Positions 6,169 through 32,796 of a DNA stretch of 41,169 bases are shown here, in pieces. The translations under genes and the position numbers were made by a program. The stretch's first letter is position 1, and each line of letters begins with the position of its first letter. Origin of the DNA: an uncultured Methanosarcinales archaeon. GTDB taxonomy: Archaea > Nanobdellota > Nanobdellia > Woesearchaeales > CAYMBN01. The stretch is from assembly GCA_964388715.1 (NCBI GenBank), contig CAYMBN010000012.1, forward strand, positions 1 to 41,169. Reading direction: 5' to 3'. Below the pieces are notes generated by a model. That model was not told the origin of the DNA and made no database searches. It saw only the letters and a list, made by a program, of their open reading frames with translations.

Positions 6169-6242
6169 GGCGGTTATGGTGTAGCCTGGCAGCACAGGGG
6201 ACTGTGGATCCCCTAGGGTGGGTTCAAATCCCACTAACCGCC
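6169..6242 (+). tRNA. tRNA-His (GTG), intronless, with encoded G-1
   Basis: Acceptor GCGGTTA/TAACCGC; anticodon stem GGGGA/TCCCC with loop CTGTGGA; T arm GTGGG-TTCAAAT-CCCAC; discriminator C; TATA box at 6134-6141. Confidence 0.96.
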
Positions 6243-8211: not shown

Positions 8212-8485
8212 TGGAAGGCTAGACCGGGTAGTTAGCCTCTACTTATAACCACAAACAGGCTTTATGGTGGGGTCAAAAACCAGGAAAAGGAGTTGTTATA
8301 TGTCAGAGGTCTTGGTTCTGACTATGAAACTCTGTCCTGTAGGACTAATATTTTTGGGAACCAGGTCAGATCAGGAATGAAGCAGCCTTAACCTTAAGTA
8401 TTGGTGCTTATTGGGTCGCGGAGTTGAGAATGAATCAAGGTCAACCTTTGATGTATATCAATTTCGATTCCTGGGAAGCCTTCCA
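8212..8485 (+). ncRNA. ffs: Signal recognition particle (7S) RNA
   Basis: Terminal pairing TGGAAGGCT/AGCCTTCCA; Alu-like domain with complementary loops AGCC/GGCT; helix 8 AGGTCAGATCA-GGAA-TGAAGCAGCCT at 8363-8388; upstream BRE/TATA. Confidence 0.92.
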
Positions 8486-25690: not shown

Positions 25691-26362
25691 ATGAAAATTA
25701 AAGGAGCTTTAGATAAAATAAAAGAAATAACTATCAATAAGAATATTCTTTATTTTCCAGGATGTTACACCAGAACGTTCCTACCTGATATTATATATAA
25801 TTATAGAAAAATTTTAGATAAAATAGGAGTTAAATACTTAATGCTTGATGATTTAGAATTATGTTGTGGTTATCCAGCTTGGTCTGCTGGTTATTCAGAT
25901 GATTTTTACAATTTAATTACAAAAAACAAAAAAATATTCAAAAAACTTAACATTGGAAAAATTATTACTAATTGTCCAATATGTTTTAAAATTTTTAAAG
26001 AACAATACAATTTTAATGTTGATCATATTTCAAATATAATATTAAAAAATATTGAAAAATTAAATTATAAACAAAATAATGAAAAAATAATTTACCATAA
26101 TTGTAAACTTAAAACAAAAGATACAATCAAAATTCTAGAAAAAATAGGTTTTCAAATTAAATTATCATCTAATTGTTCTGGAATACATGGTGGTTTAAAA
26201 GAGAATAAACCTGAATTATCAAATAACATTGCAAAATTTATGTTAAATAATCTCAAAACAAGTAAAATTATTACAACTTGTGCCTCATGTTATGATCATC
26301 TGAAAAAAAATACAAGAGATATTAAAATTATTGAACTAAGTCAACTATTCAATGAAAATTGA
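25691..26362 (+). CDS. CCG-domain Fe-S protein (GlcF/GlpC C-terminal-like)
   Basis: YFPGC, ELCCG, TNCPIC; second repeat NCSG...TTCASC. Confidence 0.85.
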   Translation: MKIKGALDKIKEITINKNILYFPGCYTRTFLPDIIYNYRKILDKIGVKYLMLDDLELCCGYPAWSAGYSDDFYNLITKNKKIFKKLNIGKIITNCPICFKIFKEQYNFNVDHISNIILKNIEKLNYKQNNEKIIYHNCKLKTKDTIKILEKIGFQIKLSSNCSGIHGGLKENKPELSNNIAKFMLNNLKTSKIITTCASCYDHLKKNTRDIKIIELSQLFNEN

Positions 26363-27506
26363 AAAATTAATTGAAATATTTGGAAGGGATAATGTTTCTA
26401 CTGAAAAGTCTGATTTATTAGTATATTCAACAGATGCTTCAATGGAACAAGGTGAACCAATAGTTATTGTATGGGCTACAAATACAGAACAAATTAGAAA
26501 ATTAATGATTTACGCAAATAGAGTTAATTTAAATGTTGTTCCTAGAGGGTATGCAACTTCTTTAGCAGGAGGAACAATTCCACTTAAATCAATTGTTTTA
26601 GACTTAAGCAAATTAAATCATATTTCCAAAATTAATTTACTTGAAAAAACAGCCACTGTTGAACCAGCAGTAGTTTTAAGTGTTTTAAACAAAAAATTAG
26701 AAGAATTTAATTTACAATTTCCAATTATATCTCAATTACACACTGTATCAACAATTGGTGGTATAATTGCAACAAATAATATTGGTTTAAAACCAATCAA
26801 ATATGGTTCTATAAAAGATTGGATATCAGAAATTGAATTTATTGATGGAACAGGTAAACTTTATCAAACAAACAAAGTAAAAGATTTTATAGGAAGTGAA
26901 GGAACTTTATGTGTTATCACAAAAATAAAACTTAAATTAACAAAACCAATAGAAAAAACAACAGCCAACACATTTCAATTTACTGATATAAACAAATTGG
27001 TTGAAAAAATTAAACAATTAAAAACAGAACCCAACATAATTTCAATAGAATTTTTTGATAAATTATCAGCTAAATTACTTGGGTTAATACCTTTATATTA
27101 TCTTTATGTTACTTATGAAAGTGAAGAAGGAGACATTAAGAACACAAATTTTATTGATCAAAGAAGAAATCAATTAAACAAGATATTATCAGCACACTCT
27201 TATACACATATAGAAAAATTACAATTAAATACTAATGAATTACCTCACTTAATATTATCATTATACAAAAATAAAATTCCTTCTTATGGTAATATTGGTT
27301 ATGGTATTATTACATCAAGATTTAAAAAAATACAACTTAATTTAATACCAAAAATAATACAATTAGTAACAAGACTCAATGGAAAAATAATTGAAATTGG
27401 TTTAACAAAAAAACCTTATGTAAATGAAGAATTTAAACAAAAAATAAAAGAACTTAAAATAAAATATGATCCTTCAAATATATTAAATAGAGGAAAAATA
27501 ATATGA
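26352..27506 (+). CDS. FAD-binding oxidoreductase, GlcD/D-lactate dehydrogenase-like (divergent)
   Basis: YSTDAS, VPRGYATSLAGG, STIGGIIATN, FIGSEGTL, YDPSNILNRGKI. Confidence 0.85.
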   Translation: MKIEKLIEIFGRDNVSTEKSDLLVYSTDASMEQGEPIVIVWATNTEQIRKLMIYANRVNLNVVPRGYATSLAGGTIPLKSIVLDLSKLNHISKINLLEKTATVEPAVVLSVLNKKLEEFNLQFPIISQLHTVSTIGGIIATNNIGLKPIKYGSIKDWISEIEFIDGTGKLYQTNKVKDFIGSEGTLCVITKIKLKLTKPIEKTTANTFQFTDINKLVEKIKQLKTEPNIISIEFFDKLSAKLLGLIPLYYLYVTYESEEGDIKNTNFIDQRRNQLNKILSAHSYTHIEKLQLNTNELPHLILSLYKNKIPSYGNIGYGIITSRFKKIQLNLIPKIIQLVTRLNGKIIEIGLTKKPYVNEEFKQKIKELKIKYDPSNILNRGKII

Positions 27507-27829
27507 ACATTGAAAAATGTTATAACTGTGGATTATGTAAATCTGTTTGTCCTGTGTTTAAAGTTTTATTAAAAGAAACTGTTTCACCACGAGGAAAGTT
27601 AATACTTATTAAGAATGATTTAGTTAGTACAGCCTACTATTTATGTACTCTTTGTGGAAAATGTAAAGAAATTTGTCCTATTCAATGTGATATTCCAAGA
27701 GCAATAAGATTAATAAGAAACAAATTAATTGATAAAGGTATTGAAACAAAACCAAACAAAGAAATAATCAAAAATTTAAATCAATATGGTAATCCTTTTG
27801 AAAAAAAAGAAAAAAAGGATGTTAAGTAA
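27503..27829 (+). CDS. 2x[4Fe-4S] dicluster protein (GlcF N-terminal-like)
   Basis: CYNCGLCKSVCP, SPRGK, CTLCGKCKEICP, GNPF. Confidence 0.88.
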   Translation: MNIEKCYNCGLCKSVCPVFKVLLKETVSPRGKLILIKNDLVSTAYYLCTLCGKCKEICPIQCDIPRAIRLIRNKLIDKGIETKPNKEIIKNLNQYGNPFEKKEKKDVK

Positions 27830-28130
27830 CTTCTTCACGTAACTGAAAATTAAATAAATCCAAGTATTCTTCTGTTAAGTTAGGTGCTTGTTCTAACAAC
27901 ATTTCATATATATCTGCACTATAACAGTGAGCACATAAATTCATTGTTTTTCCACAGAACATACATTCTGTTCCTGTGATAAACTCATCATAATTAAATG
28001 AATCCACAATCATATTATTTAGTTTTGGATTTTTTTCTCTTAACCAATGTTTAACCTGTCGTGCTAAACATTCAGGACATATTGGGTTTGTTATGCCTTG
28101 TAGGCATACAGTACATGTGTTTTTATTCAT
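27822..28130 (-). CDS. Small Cys-rich putative metal-binding protein
   Basis: Four CxxC pairs (CTVC, CPEC, CMFC, CAHC); strong GAGGTGAGGG SD. Confidence 0.8.
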   Translation of the reverse strand: MNKNTCTVCLQGITNPICPECLARQVKHWLREKNPKLNNMIVDSFNYDEFITGTECMFCGKTMNLCAHCYSADIYEMLLEQAPNLTEEYLDLFNFQLREEVT

Positions 28131-28139
28131 TTTCCCTCA

Positions 28140-28329
28140 CCTCAAGGTTTTAATTTTTTGATTGGATTCAAACAACATTCCTTAGAACTCACACCACATT
28201 TGACATGAATTGTTTAGAAACAGTTGCAAGAACCCATCAATGATGATGTTCTTACCATGTCATAATGTGATATAGACACTTGTAGCTGAAATCAAAATTC
28301 ACACGTTTAATAATAGTCAAGTGTCTCAT
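28140..28329 (-). ncRNA. Candidate structured 5' leader / cis-regulatory RNA
   Basis: Perfect 9-bp stem (28326-28318 with 28282-28274); 13-bp bulged stem (28269-28256 with 28207-28195) enclosing two hairpins; minus-strand TATA box at 28359-28352. Confidence 0.55.
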
Positions 28330-28453
28330 TATTTAAGTTAAATATTTTAGTTATATAAATAATTTTCTATTAAAAATTTAAAAATAACGCAAAAATAACA
28401 TGTTTTTCTTATTTTAAAGAAGATTTATAAATGTTTAATGATTTTCTTATTTT

Positions 28454-29134
28454 ATGTATATAGACATTGTTTTTCCAAGTAATAATGAAGAAAAATTTAT
28501 TAAAAATGCAATTTTGTTAGGTTACAATGGATTAATTTTAACATATAAATTTAACAAAAAAAATGTTGAGTTATTTCATAAAGTAAAAAAAATTTACAAA
28601 TTAAATAATTTTAAAATAAAACTCTTCCTAGGATTAATGATTAATCCAAAGCAAATAAACAAAACAAAAAAAATAGCAGATATTATTGTAACAGAAGCAG
28701 ACATAAACAAAATTAATATTTCAAAAAACACTTTAATGTACAATTTTGAAAACATCACAATCAAAGACAAATTTAATCAAAAAACATCAGGATTAAACCA
28801 TATTTTATGCAAATCACTCAAAAAAAAGAACATTCCAATCATTTTTCCAATAACAACTTTCTTCAACTCAAAAAATCAACAAAAATTATTTGGAAAAATA
28901 CTCCAAAACATAAAACTCTGCAAAAAATATAAAAATATCATAATTTTAACTTCTTTTGCAAAACATCCAAAAGAAATGATTTCTCCACATGATTTAATTG
29001 CTTATGGAATAATTCTTGGCTTAACACCAACACAAGCAAAAAAATCTATTTTCAATATTCACAATCTAATTTTATTAAATAAAAAGAAAAAAACTGGTAA
29101 ATTGATTACAGAAGGTGTTGAACTCTTAGATTAA
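28454..29134 (+). CDS. rnp3: RNase P protein subunit Rpp30
   Basis: D.FNQKTSGLNHILCK, QNIKLCKKY, SFAKHPKEM.SP.DL, GVELL C-terminus. Confidence 0.82.
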   Translation: MYIDIVFPSNNEEKFIKNAILLGYNGLILTYKFNKKNVELFHKVKKIYKLNNFKIKLFLGLMINPKQINKTKKIADIIVTEADINKINISKNTLMYNFENITIKDKFNQKTSGLNHILCKSLKKKNIPIIFPITTFFNSKNQQKLFGKILQNIKLCKKYKNIIILTSFAKHPKEMISPHDLIAYGIILGLTPTQAKKSIFNIHNLILLNKKKKTGKLITEGVELLD

Positions 29135-29190: not shown

Positions 29191-32100
29191 ATGAGAAAAG
29201 AGAGATGGTTTATAGTAATTTTAATTATTTTAGTTTCTATTAGTTTTGTAAGTGCAGATGGATGTGATTTTTCTATTAATAATGATAATGATAAATACAA
29301 CACAACTAATTGTAGTTTAAGTTCATTTTGGGAAGCAAATGATATAACCTTATATGATGGAACTCCTGTACCAAATGCAAAAATTTGTCCTAATGGTAAA
29401 GTTGGAGTAGAAGTTCAAGACATGGTTGGTTCTTGGAAAGAAAGTTTTACAATATATTGTGAATATATTAATATAACAAATAATGATATAACTCTTGTTG
29501 GACCAGTAACCACCATTTTTAGTGGTGGTGATGGAGGTACTGCAGGATATCACGCTTGTCCTGAAGGTTATGTTTTAACAGGGGGAAATTTTAGTGGTGG
29601 ATTTGGTGAAAAACCTATAGGAAGAACTTTGTTTAGATGTACTAAATTAACAGGTGTTGATGAAAATGGAAATCTTATATTAGATTATACAAACCAACAT
29701 GAAACACCTAGCCGTAGAGCTTGGGATTGTCACCATAGAGGTGACTGCCCTGATGGACCAGGATATGATTGTCCTAAAGGTAAAGTTGTTGTAGGAATCG
29801 GTTTTAATAATAAAGGTCATGTTATTTGTGCAAATGTTACCAAAATAAATGACACAGACTGCAATGACACAGACCCAACAATATATCCAGGTGCACTTGA
29901 AATATGTGATGCTAAACTTCATAATTGTGACAATATAAAAAGGGTTGAAGCAGGTGAACCTTATGGTCAAGTATTTGCAGAAGTATGTGAAGCAGATGAT
30001 AATAAACAAACATGTAACTTTTATAATCAATATATGTGGTATACTTCTTGGTTAGAAGGAGTAGAAGATACAAATCTTTGTTGTGGTGATGATAATGAAT
30101 CAGACCTAGGAACAATCCGTGATCAAGGAAGATTTCTTTGTTATGACAGACCAAGATGGAATTGGACACGTGCAGATCATCCTAATAATCAATACAAAAT
30201 AATTACAGTTGAGAAAGAAGGAGAAACATTTGATTTAGTATCAAATTCACAACAATGGTGGAAATGTGATGCAGAAGGTACTGCAGATCCTGCAAATTAT
30301 GAATTTGGTGAAGGAATTAGTTCACCAGGAACAGAAGATGAAGAAACAGATGAAGAACAATATATTCGTTTTATTGGTGGTGAAGAACAACAAACAACTT
30401 TTACATATGATTCTTCAGGAAATGGAATTGATAAAACCATTTTTATGAATAATCCTCTTGAATTTCTTCAAGCAATTATAGAAAGCCTAACAACAGGTGA
30501 TTTAGCAACACTACCTTTACCAGGAGAAGATACTTCAACAATAGATTCAACCACAACAGAAACAACCCCAATATCCTTACCTATTCAAACTCAAAAATCA
30601 CAATCCTTCTTATGTTATGAACTCAATGGAAAAAATCAAATTGCAGAATGTTGTTATGAAAGAACATGTAAAAATCCAGAAAAAGGTTTTGCAAGAGGAT
30701 CTTCTTTATACAGTGTTTTAGATTTTGATACAATTGAAGAAGACAATGCTTACGACTTTGTTTGGGTTGTTGGTCTTAAAGGAACTTATATGCAACACAG
30801 CTTTTCCTCTAACCACAATAACCCAATGCGCAGATTAAAATTCACAAACTGGTCACAATTCAAAAACTTAGAATTTGATTATTATGTATACAATTTCAGC
30901 AAAACCCTAAAACACATAAAAATCTTTGATAGTGGTACTGAAGTTTTTGATGGGAACATATTTGATTATTCAACAATTGGTGATACTCCTAACACTCCTC
31001 ATCACATAATAATTCCACTTGACTTTGAAAAAGATAATATTTCAAAAATTACAATTTATCATGAATTTGAAAAATACACAGAACCAACTTTAGTACTTGA
31101 TTCATTTATTTTAACAGGTGACAAACAAAATCAATATTGTTCAGCACAATATGTAAAATGGGTAGATGATACAGAATTTGATTCACAAGATGACCAAACC
31201 TTACTTCCTTACAAAACAGTTTGTGATGCCCAAATGTCTTATTATTGGACAGGAAAACAATGTTGTGGTGATGATCAAACATTATCAAAAAAAGAATATT
31301 ATGATCAAGATACACATGGTTGTTGGCAAGGTCAAATAGTTAGCAATGCAACAAGAGTAAATGATTCACTTAAAAAACAAGAATATGCAAACATATTATA
31401 TCACAACAACTTTTTCAAATCTTGCGCAGACTTTGATTCATCAGACACATTTACAACAACACCTAATGATTACTGTCAAGTTTATGGAGACTTCTTTTGT
31501 TCATACCAAAACATATGGAGCAATGAACCAAACAATAATATAATCTCAAAACAAAGAAATACACCAAAAAACCTAACAGATGTACAATCAGAAAAAGCCA
31601 ACAACTTTAATTTTGAAAATGATAAAGATTGTTGCCCAAGAACACATTGTTGGAACACAACACATTGTATTTCTTCAGAAACAGGTATTTTTGACAGGAC
31701 AAAAAAAGAATACCTTTCCATGGACTTTGGAACAGGAATAAATGATGATGAATTTGATTTATACGCTTGTTACAATGATAATGGAACAGGCATATGGCAA
31801 AAAGCATATAAAAGAGAAAAATACAATGATATCAACAATATTGCTTACAGTTTAAATAAAACACAATGTTGGGATGGAACCAAATTTATCAATGATTCTT
31901 ATTATACAGGTGATCATTATTGTCAAAATGGAACATGGACATCAAGAACAAAAGCCCTTGCATTAAAACTTTTATCAATAAAACAAACACATACTGACCA
32001 ACTTGATAATTATGTTTTATATTGTGATAAATATGACAAAACACTACCTCACTTTAATTATTTTATCCAAGGAACATCAGCTTTAAGATACATAAAAGGA

Positions 32101-32796
32101 CAAGAAATTTGTCAAGATGACATTTTTTGTGATTATCAATGTGGTGAAGCAGAAACATGTACAAACAATTTTTGTGTTTTAAAATACAATGATCGAGTTT
32201 ATGGTGACACAATTTTATTTGGTACATCATTAAACAGAGAAATCAATGTAACAGATTATCCCTTTTATGAATTATTTGATTACACTAACTGTAATGATGC
32301 ATTAACAACTTCCTCTTACAATAAATGCAACTCAAACAAAGATGCAAAAATACTTTGGTATAACTCAAAATCAAAAATCTCAATATACACACAAAACAAC
32401 ATCAACATAAATTCAGACTTTTCTTTACTTGATTACTTTTTAGAACATCCATTCAAAGCAATCCTTTACTTTATTAACAATTTTGAAGTATTTATAGGTG
32501 ATTTTGGTCAACCAATTGATTTTGGAGGTAATTTCACAAACTATAACAAAATATATCTCTCACAAAAAGATAATAAAATAATAAGAGGAATAGTCGAAAG
32601 AGAAACAAACACAGTAAACAGATTACTTATCAACTACACAGGATTCAACCAAGATATATGTGTAACAATTGATAAAATAGGACTAAACGAACTTAATTGT
32701 GAAACATATGAATCTTCTTCTTATGTTGGAACATTAAATAATGATTTAATTACTTATTATTGGCAAGATTTAACTTCCAAAACAAGAATCAAATAA
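29191..32796 (+). CDS. Large secreted Cys-rich protein with a MopE-like metal-binding motif
   Basis: Signal peptide ending VSA; DCNDTDPTIYPGALEICD; two CCGDD motifs; many N-x-S/T sequons. Confidence 0.85.
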   Translation: MRKERWFIVILIILVSISFVSADGCDFSINNDNDKYNTTNCSLSSFWEANDITLYDGTPVPNAKICPNGKVGVEVQDMVGSWKESFTIYCEYINITNNDITLVGPVTTIFSGGDGGTAGYHACPEGYVLTGGNFSGGFGEKPIGRTLFRCTKLTGVDENGNLILDYTNQHETPSRRAWDCHHRGDCPDGPGYDCPKGKVVVGIGFNNKGHVICANVTKINDTDCNDTDPTIYPGALEICDAKLHNCDNIKRVEAGEPYGQVFAEVCEADDNKQTCNFYNQYMWYTSWLEGVEDTNLCCGDDNESDLGTIRDQGRFLCYDRPRWNWTRADHPNNQYKIITVEKEGETFDLVSNSQQWWKCDAEGTADPANYEFGEGISSPGTEDEETDEEQYIRFIGGEEQQTTFTYDSSGNGIDKTIFMNNPLEFLQAIIESLTTGDLATLPLPGEDTSTIDSTTTETTPISLPIQTQKSQSFLCYELNGKNQIAECCYERTCKNPEKGFARGSSLYSVLDFDTIEEDNAYDFVWVVGLKGTYMQHSFSSNHNNPMRRLKFTNWSQFKNLEFDYYVYNFSKTLKHIKIFDSGTEVFDGNIFDYSTIGDTPNTPHHIIIPLDFEKDNISKITIYHEFEKYTEPTLVLDSFILTGDKQNQYCSAQYVKWVDDTEFDSQDDQTLLPYKTVCDAQMSYYWTGKQCCGDDQTLSKKEYYDQDTHGCWQGQIVSNATRVNDSLKKQEYANILYHNNFFKSCADFDSSDTFTTTPNDYCQVYGDFFCSYQNIWSNEPNNNIISKQRNTPKNLTDVQSEKANNFNFENDKDCCPRTHCWNTTHCISSETGIFDRTKKEYLSMDFGTGINDDEFDLYACYNDNGTGIWQKAYKREKYNDINNIAYSLNKTQCWDGTKFINDSYYTGDHYCQNGTWTSRTKALALKLLSIKQTHTDQLDNYVLYCDKYDKTLPHFNYFIQGTSALRYIKGQEICQDDIFCDYQCGEAETCTNNFCVLKYNDRVYGDTILFGTSLNREINVTDYPFYELFDYTNCNDALTTSSYNKCNSNKDAKILWYNSKSKISIYTQNNININSDFSLLDYFLEHPFKAILYFINNFEVFIGDFGQPIDFGGNFTNYNKIYLSQKDNKIIRGIVERETNTVNRLLINYTGFNQDICVTIDKIGLNELNCETYESSSYVGTLNNDLITYYWQDLTSKTRIK

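Follow-up and report, generated by a model that had tools for sequence, protein, structure and literature searches.

A conserved mRNA leader with an upstream reading frame and two mutually exclusive helices, possibly a ribosome-operated switch, ahead of a double-Cys4 protein gene in a woesearchaeal genome

The 5' leader of a gene encoding a 102-amino-acid (aa) protein with two Cys4 sites was analysed in contig CAYMBN010000012.1 of an uncultured archaeon assigned to the Woesearchaeales (assembly GCA_964388715.1; positions 1 to 41,169; this whole stretch of 41,169 nucleotides (nt) is called the window). The source genome is A+T-rich, and the leader occupies the interval between two divergent genes, namely the open reading frame (ORF) of the 102-aa protein (28130-27822, minus strand) and a gene for the RNase P protein p30 (Rpp30; 28454-29134, plus strand; Pfam E 1.8e-13). 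A preliminary description had proposed a structured cis-regulatory RNA in this interval. The TATA box, the stems, the three-way junction, the two copies of GTGTGA(A/G)TT and the strong Shine-Dalgarno (SD) sequence that it listed were all found where it had placed them on the minus strand of the leader, and the minimum-free-energy (MFE) fold reproduces its stems. The leader also contains an upstream ORF (uORF). The features are the following:

27822..28130, minus strand: main ORF, encoding the 102-aa protein with two Cys4 sites (ORF list, domain and homologue searches)
28352..28359, minus strand: TATA box TTTATATA of the leader promoter, starting 30 nt ahead of the uORF ATG
28252..28329, minus strand: uORF, unannotated and presumably leaderless, 25 codons plus TAA, with its Trp codon at 28257-28255 and its stop at 28254-28252
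28274..28326, minus strand: H1, a hairpin within the uORF in which 28326-28318 pairs with 28282-28274, plus an inner stem (MFE fold, co-evolution)
28248..28269, minus strand: S1, the 5' strand of fold H2, made of the last five uORF codons, the stop codon and GAAC (MFE fold)
28223..28240, minus strand: S2, a shared strand with the 11-mer GGGTTCTTGCA, whose partner is S1 (in H2) or S3 (in H3) (fold and co-evolution)
28195..28207, minus strand: 3' strand of the H2 outer helix (three-way junction in the window), whose partner is 28269-28256 (MFE fold)
28180..28220, minus strand: apical domain of H3, with two TTCTAA copies (28220-28212 and 28188-28180; motif enrichment in relatives)
28158..28176, minus strand: S3, the 3' strand of the long hairpin H3 and alternative partner of S2, in a helix with a UU/UU internal mismatch (fold with S1 blocked)
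28157-28144, minus strand: A-rich spacer before the SD sequence (sequence)
28134..28143, minus strand: SD sequence GAGGTGAGGG of the main ORF, whose ATG is at 28130 (sequence)

Judged from this single sequence, the leader fold is only mildly unusual. The MFE of 28335-28131 on the minus strand is -51.7 kcal/mol against -39.4 +/- 4.2 in 200 dinucleotide shuffles (RNAfold; z -2.94), a value matched by 2 of the 200 shuffles; the fold of the plus strand is weaker (-41.9, z -2.45), and the leader has a G+C content of 0.33 compared with 0.16-0.25 in its flanks. The strong evidence that the structure is not due to chance is that its helices are conserved and co-vary upstream of homologous genes. A nucleotide search with the leader against 60 genomes of the order returned short matches only (best 30 nt, E 7.7e-5), and one 45-nt match sits upstream of a homologue of the protein. 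As this search was uninformative, relatives were gathered via the protein, and they proved to be Woesearchaeota or Nanoarchaeia metagenome-assembled genomes. The homologous loci come from genome contigs (44) and metagenome contigs (59), and 119 upstream regions were extracted from homologue loci, of which 97 are non-redundant. The 1.3-Mb genome has a single copy of the leader stretch. GGGTTCTTGCA is found exactly once more, on contig C5, within an ORF of the opposite strand, and this copy was taken as chance.

The A of the uORF ATG, at 28329, is the very position that the preliminary description had predicted as the transcript start, and the first 78 nt from this predicted start form an open reading frame, whose 25 codons end in TGG TAA (28257-28252) and which lies 121 nt from the main start in the window. 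A TATA box about 30 nt ahead of a start codon is the geometry of a leaderless archaeal transcript. In 37 of 39 related loci, a search from 15 to 45 nt ahead of the uORF ATG (ties resolved towards 30) places a TTTAWATA-like box with its first letter 28-34 nt (median 31) upstream of that ATG, a geometry that agrees with a start near 28329. With a match of at least 7/8, a TATA-like box precedes the uORF ATG in 55 of 96 loci and the main ATG in only 7 of 97, and an SD-like sequence is found ahead of the main ATG in 67 of 97. Under a looser rule, a TATA-positioned uORF is present in 79 of 96 loci, in 62 of which the uORF end moreover forms a strong duplex with the 46 nt that follow it. ATG-initiated ORFs of at least 20 codons that end 60-230 nt before the main ATG occur in 76 of 92 loci, compared with 46.2 +/- 5.0 (maximum 61) in 200 dinucleotide shuffles. 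Among the 10 closest leaders, the ATG and the TGG-stop are invariant and delimit a uORF of 24, 25, 27 or 28 codons, and the distance from its stop to the main ATG is 99-163 nt, the values not being multiples of 3. TAA, TAG and TGA are each found at the same aligned stop position, and the GGTAA motif that recurs upstream of homologues represents the Trp codon and the stop after it.

Some variation of this arrangement was observed. In one subfamily (L057, L059, L063, L067, L107, L108 and L152), the uORF continues past the Trp codon for eight more codons through a small hairpin and ends in ..AN-stop just before S2, and S1 closely resembles S3. In other orders of the same class, L176 retains the uORF and H2, while the leaders of L170, L172, L174, L175 and L178 are much shorter or different, with small ORFs that end 35-48 or about 145 nt before the main ATG and with weak H2-type duplexes. 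The protein family as a whole therefore does not always come with this leader. Two further candidates were rejected by eye: a second, overlapping uORF of the window that ends at the TTCTAA motif, the frame of which is not kept in relatives, and translational bypassing from the Trp codon, for which the window has no matching in-frame landing codon before the main ATG.

In the MFE fold of the window, S1 pairs with S2 and with 28207-28195 to give H2, which is the three-way junction of the preliminary description (28269-28256 with 28207-28195; 28254-28248 with 28232-28226; small hairpin 28225-28208). This junction is present, but it is only one of two exclusive folds, and its closing helix holds the last codons and the stop of a uORF that had been overlooked. 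S2 can alternatively pair with S3 to give the long hairpin H3, and H2 and H3 are mutually exclusive because they share S2. The uORF stop codon lies within H2 in all cases. When S1 is blocked, as it would be by a terminating ribosome, the predicted fold of the window flips from H2 to H3, and among relatives the MFE fold of a locus may contain either H2 or H3.

Trp-type and Cys-type leaders do not pair in the same register, so that counts of pairs in fixed alignment columns are weak; therefore, the duplex energy of each locus with its own partner was compared with that obtained with partners from other loci (5000 permutations). A set of 40 loci was used, chosen for uORFs with a Cys or Trp end, after leaving out 7 of 47 selected loci (five near-duplicates and two of odd geometry). 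In this set, the energy of H2 was -23.4 kcal/mol with the own partner vs -14.9 kcal/mol with others (0/5000), the own partner being the best of its row in 21 of the 40 loci, and that of H3 was -20.7 vs -14.3 kcal/mol (0/5000). The same was found with de-duplicated leaders, both for H2 (-22.7 vs -13.8 kcal/mol, 0/5000, n=52) and for H3 (-20.0 vs -13.6 kcal/mol, 0/5000, n=47, five loci with too short a 3' window being left out), as well as for the uORF hairpin H1 (-15.9 vs -8.7 kcal/mol, 0/5000, n=52). Four control pairings gave no difference between own and other partners; the controls comprised S1 with the SD sequence, the 5' end with the S2 window and the 5' end with the S3 window. In the 10 closest leaders, 92.6% of the cells are paired for H2 and 90.9% for H1 plus H3, vs 19-48% with slid partners; H1 alone reaches 92.9%, with three pairs changed on both sides, H1 plus H3 have four such pairs, and H2 hardly varies in this set. 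A covariance model (R1) recovers 21 loci at E<=0.01, the window's leader not being among them, and in the covariance-model alignment of 21 loci (A4) 71.7% of cells are paired, a value that none of 500 shuffles attains. The preliminary description had named the lack of comparable structure or co-variation upstream of homologues as a reason to drop its proposal; both are present there.

A uORF placed at the transcript start, two folds that exclude each other, and a uORF end and stop codon held in the H2 helix therefore suggest a ribosome-driven switch. The leader of the mRNA of the 102-aa double-Cys4 protein would thus be a ribosome-operated RNA switch whose uORF is leaderless, a reading to which a rough probability of 0.55 can be given. 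In this proposal, transcription would start at about 28329, right on the AUG of the leaderless 25-codon uORF. As long as the uORF is untranslated, the leader would adopt a ground state with H1 within the uORF and H2 formed by S1 and S2. A ribosome arriving at the uORF stop would melt H2 and cover S1, and the freed S2 could then pair with S3 to give H3, so that the switch would report that the leader is translated or that a ribosome is paused at its end. The signal is probably the act of translation, rather than the peptide product or a specific amino acid, since the peptide is weakly constrained and its terminal codon is explicable by pairing with S2. The signal to the main gene would most likely be an altered access to the SD sequence and, less likely, an altered fate of the transcript. 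In the 40 loci, the mean predicted unpaired fraction of the SD sequence and AUG is 0.46 with H2 enforced vs 0.56 with S1 blocked, the exposure being higher with S1 blocked in 25 loci and lower in 4 (Wilcoxon p 1.8e-5, for sequences that are related to one another).

Several observations weigh against this switch or limit what supports it. The window's own predicted SD access is unchanged (0.64 vs 0.65), and the complementarity of S3 to the SD sequence (-9.2 vs -8.1, 8/5000) is no stronger than that of the control pairing of S1 with S3 (10/5000); on these two grounds, SD sequestration as the output is doubtful. As for the frame itself, 10 close pairs of uORFs show 17 synonymous and 28 non-synonymous single changes, 11.5 synonymous changes being expected at random, and their differences are spread over the three codon positions as 13/28/27. 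The peptide is thus weakly constrained, and much of the apparent conservation, including the terminal Trp or Cys, may reflect the need to pair with the conserved S2. The start codon of relatives has its G at the edge of H1. The permutation counts overstate the independence of the loci, because these are related to one another. Among the fixed-register results, which are weak, RNAalifold found no consensus structure in the MAFFT alignment (A3), in which 61% of cells are paired, a value reached by 10 of 500 shuffles, and the covariation score of A4 is 0.207 vs 0.148, reached by 2 of 500 shuffles. Finally, the public sequencing runs listed for the stretch are eight DNA runs from two studies and no RNA run, and the transcript start, the translation of the uORF and the continuity of the leader with the main ORF are all inferred.

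The alternative closest to the preliminary description is a riboswitch-like or protein-binding leader, in which the open frame would be incidental and the RNA would be bound by a ligand or, for autoregulation, by the zinc protein. The 10 closest leaders all share the 11-mer GGGTTCTTGCA of S2 without a change, although their proteins are only about 42-52% identical, as this alternative would have it, but such invariance is expected anyway because one strand has to pair with two partners. The motif TTCTRA occurs in the apical part of H3 far more often than by chance (in 21 of 40 loci vs 1.8 +/- 1.4 in shuffles), with two copies in the window; it could be a contact for a protein or the ribosome, and the 102-aa protein could bind it. 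The apical domain is, however, highly variable in length and sequence, and no conserved multi-stem pocket was found. The weak amino-acid constraint on the uORF would suit an incidental frame, and so would a leader with one copy in the genome and always ahead of the same protein family; against this, the promoter puts the transcript start on the uORF ATG, ORFs are enriched over shuffles and differ in length by whole codons, and the stop codon is always inside H2. No family was matched in Rfam either: at gathering thresholds, only an SRP RNA and one tRNA were found in the whole window, and a permissive scan of 27900-28600 gave four matches to snoRNA models (E 0.72-3.9), far below thresholds, and none for the minus-strand structure. 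We regard a ligand- or protein-binding leader with an incidental frame as unlikely. What stands of the initial cis-regulatory idea is a long, conserved and structured 5' leader tied to the four-CxxC gene, whereas nothing indicated a metal or metabolite aptamer or an RNA-protein pair. The element is a conserved cis-regulatory leader of a new family, and its anatomy supports a uORF-driven switch over a ligand-sensing riboswitch.

Two side observations concern the same stretch. The TTCTAA/TTCTGA motif often follows T runs and is often situated in or beside loops. On the plus strand, ATGATGA and CTGA boxes about 50 nt apart occur at 28229-28320 and were taken to result from the hairpins of the opposite strand; a C/D box sRNA on the plus strand was rejected, the matches to snoMe28S-Am2634 (20.8 bits, threshold 50) and SNORD31 (14.3 bits, threshold 40), with E of about 1-4, being at chance level.

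A second possibility is a two-gene operon, in which a functional micro-protein, encoded by the 25-codon frame, would be produced alongside the zinc protein, the hairpins doing no more than stabilising the mRNA or adjusting how much of each product is made. The reading frame is indeed conserved, its start appears to be leaderless, and within subfamilies the C-terminus K-P-x-M-W/C is kept with synonymous variants (Lys AAA 10/AAG 5; Pro CCA 13/CCC 3/CCG 2), but the peptides diverge widely between subfamilies, with endings that include ..PTA, ..AN and ..KLM. One close pair of uORFs differs by six synonymous changes and one non-synonymous change, but the overall synonymous excess is slight, and the most conserved codons are those that pair with S2. 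The mean entropy of the uORF is 1.65, 1.63 and 1.85 at the three codon positions. Simple co-expression needs no pair of competing, co-evolving helices, and a low probability is attributed to this operon.

The last codon of the uORF could, in a third explanation, gauge charged tRNA for a Cys-rich protein, as in bacterial amino-acid attenuators. The leader-peptide transcription attenuators of enterobacteria, such as trpL, hisL and thrL (Rfam Trp_leader and similar), combine a leader ORF with mutually exclusive helices that are read by the translating ribosome, and both a short leader ORF (25 codons in the window, TATA-positioned in the 79 loci mentioned above) and alternative helices are found here. 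The main protein has eight invariant Cys and one invariant Trp, uORFs ending in Cys or Trp occur in 45 of 92 loci vs 2.8 +/- 1.9 in shuffles, and the last sense codon is TGG (15), TGC (17) or TGT (8) in 40 of the 40 selected loci, four of which end in Cys-Cys; these 40 loci were, however, picked for such ends. Moreover, pairing with TTGCAA of S2 calls for a terminal TG(G/C/T) and a stop after it, the uORFs of other subfamilies end in other residues, and the regulatory codon is a single terminal Trp or Cys codon and not a run. Unlike the main genes of trpL-type leaders, the main gene is not involved in amino-acid biosynthesis, and the leader matches no Rfam leader family. The window has no terminator hairpin with a U tract, nor any T run of at least 5 from the end of the uORF to the main ATG; such runs are enriched in the leaders of relatives but confined to 12 of 40 (vs 3.9 +/- 1.8 in shuffles), and termination at oligo-U was rejected as an output. 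A sensor of charged tRNA is accordingly very improbable. Least probable of all, and hardly credible, is that the leader region is a separate gene for a small non-coding RNA and that the zinc-protein gene downstream has its own promoter: this would account for a G+C-rich island with a stable fold in an A+T-rich genome and next to a divergent RNase P protein gene, but the RNase P RNA is elsewhere in the genome, Rfam gave no match, no T run of at least 5 separates the structure from the main ORF in the window, the element always accompanies the same downstream gene, and the main ATG rarely has a TATA-like box placed for it (the 7 of 97 loci given above) and far more often an SD-like sequence, which needs a leader (67 of 97).

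For the ribosome-operated switch, the closest analogues are, as far as the anatomy can tell, all bacterial or from phages. Leader ORFs that are read by the ribosome and that act through competing RNA helices are textbook bacterial control, and the ermC/ermB, cat and cmlA leaders are the translation-attenuation leaders of bacterial resistance genes. As in the ermC/cat type, a short leader ORF is located upstream, its end (S1) pairs with a second segment (S2) that can instead pair with a third one downstream (S3), and the main gene has its own SD sequence; the ribosome on the leader decides the fold in the known systems and would do so here. The present case differs in that it is archaeal, in that its uORF would be leaderless instead of SD-led, in that it has no known inducer and in that the regulated gene encodes a small zinc protein; in addition, sequestration of the SD sequence by the ground-state fold is not predicted for the window and only modestly so for relatives. 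Ribosome stalling on erm uORFs is described in PMC5499644.

Translational coupling by RNA unfolding, reported for MS2 coat-lysis and for E. coli rpmI-rplT in PMC12548453, is alike in that translation of an upstream frame remodels RNA tens of nt away and affects a downstream SD-led start. Here, the uORF is only 25 codons long and distant from the main start, and two co-evolving helices would be swapped, in contrast to the plain melting of a ribosome-binding-site hairpin. In tnaC-type control, a ribosome held at the leader stop codon blocks the termination factor. The leader of 24-28 codons, the critical stop-codon region and the long untranslated spacer before the main gene are common to both, but the peptide is poorly conserved between subfamilies here, and stalling, a ligand and factor-dependent termination are without evidence. 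The archaeal counterpart of the termination factor is FttA, according to PMC12548453, in which translational coupling in archaea is also said to be little studied. Archaeal uORFs have been detected by ribosome profiling in Haloferax (PMC7261190). A full-text literature search returned no archaeal ribosome-read leader with competing helices and nothing joining Woesearchaeota to riboswitches.

The 102-aa protein has no match in Pfam or NCBIfam. Its family has the invariant residues C6, C9, N15, P16, C18, C21, W29, C56, C59, C66 and C69, and an AlphaFold2 model (23 sequences, pLDDT 83.7) predicts two repeats, each made of a zinc knuckle followed by two helices. No solved structure was matched by this predicted structure (Foldseek against the PDB, best E 1.6; VIA-align, best Z 4.3), and the ESM Atlas gave only 'hypothetical protein' clusters from Woesearchaeota and Nanobdellota. 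The protein is encoded in 22 of 61 genomes of the order (including that of the window) and in 78 of 301 genomes sampled across the phylum, all 78 belonging to the same order or the same class; 16 clusters were found in a collection of 5.8 billion proteins, the best with 52% identity.

On a broader and more tentative view, which we consider possible and somewhat doubtful, the leader may be the first archaeal translation-attenuation system, belonging to a leader family widespread in the class that holds the Woesearchaeota: a ribosome that loads co-transcriptionally on the leaderless uORF, or that pauses at the Trp/Cys-stop, would toggle the two co-evolving helices and set the level of the zinc protein, which is lineage-specific and may itself have the translation apparatus as its target. 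If this were true, DPANN archaea with tiny genomes would use co-transcriptional translation of a leaderless mini-gene to control an SD-led gene, the leaders would constitute a populous and testable RNA family of about 80 loci, and a first functional handle would be available on a lineage-specific double-zinc protein family found in a quarter of the sampled phylum genomes (78/301). The uORF is also a concrete example of an unannotated small ORF for annotation pipelines.

With regard to the neighbouring genes, an Rpp30 homologue adjoins the zinc-protein gene in 15 of 119 related loci (redundant count), mostly in divergent and sometimes in the same orientation. The possibility, suggested by this neighbour, that the leader is the RNase P RNA was ruled out, as an archaeal RNase P RNA (RF00373) is encoded on another contig (C4 70210-70519, 154 bits); RF02357 had no match in the genome. 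The 102-aa protein is not a divergent Rpp21 either, the genes for Rpp21 (Rpr2) and Rpp29 (p29) being located on other contigs of the genome. Three co-oriented genes at 25691-27829 (plus strand), with CCG, FAD_binding_4 and 4Fe-4S dicluster domains, are reminiscent of a cluster of the glycolate or lactate oxidase type, and the 3' end of the last one overlaps that of the convergent zinc-protein gene by 8 nt (27822-27829). On the other side, an ORF at 29191-32796 (plus strand) encodes a Cys-rich protein of 1201 aa that has a hydrophobic segment at its N-terminus and a putative metal-binding motif of the MopE type (Pfam E 1.3e-8). The archaeal SRP RNA is located at 8212-8485 (plus strand, 153 bits) and the tRNA gene at 6170-6242 (plus strand).

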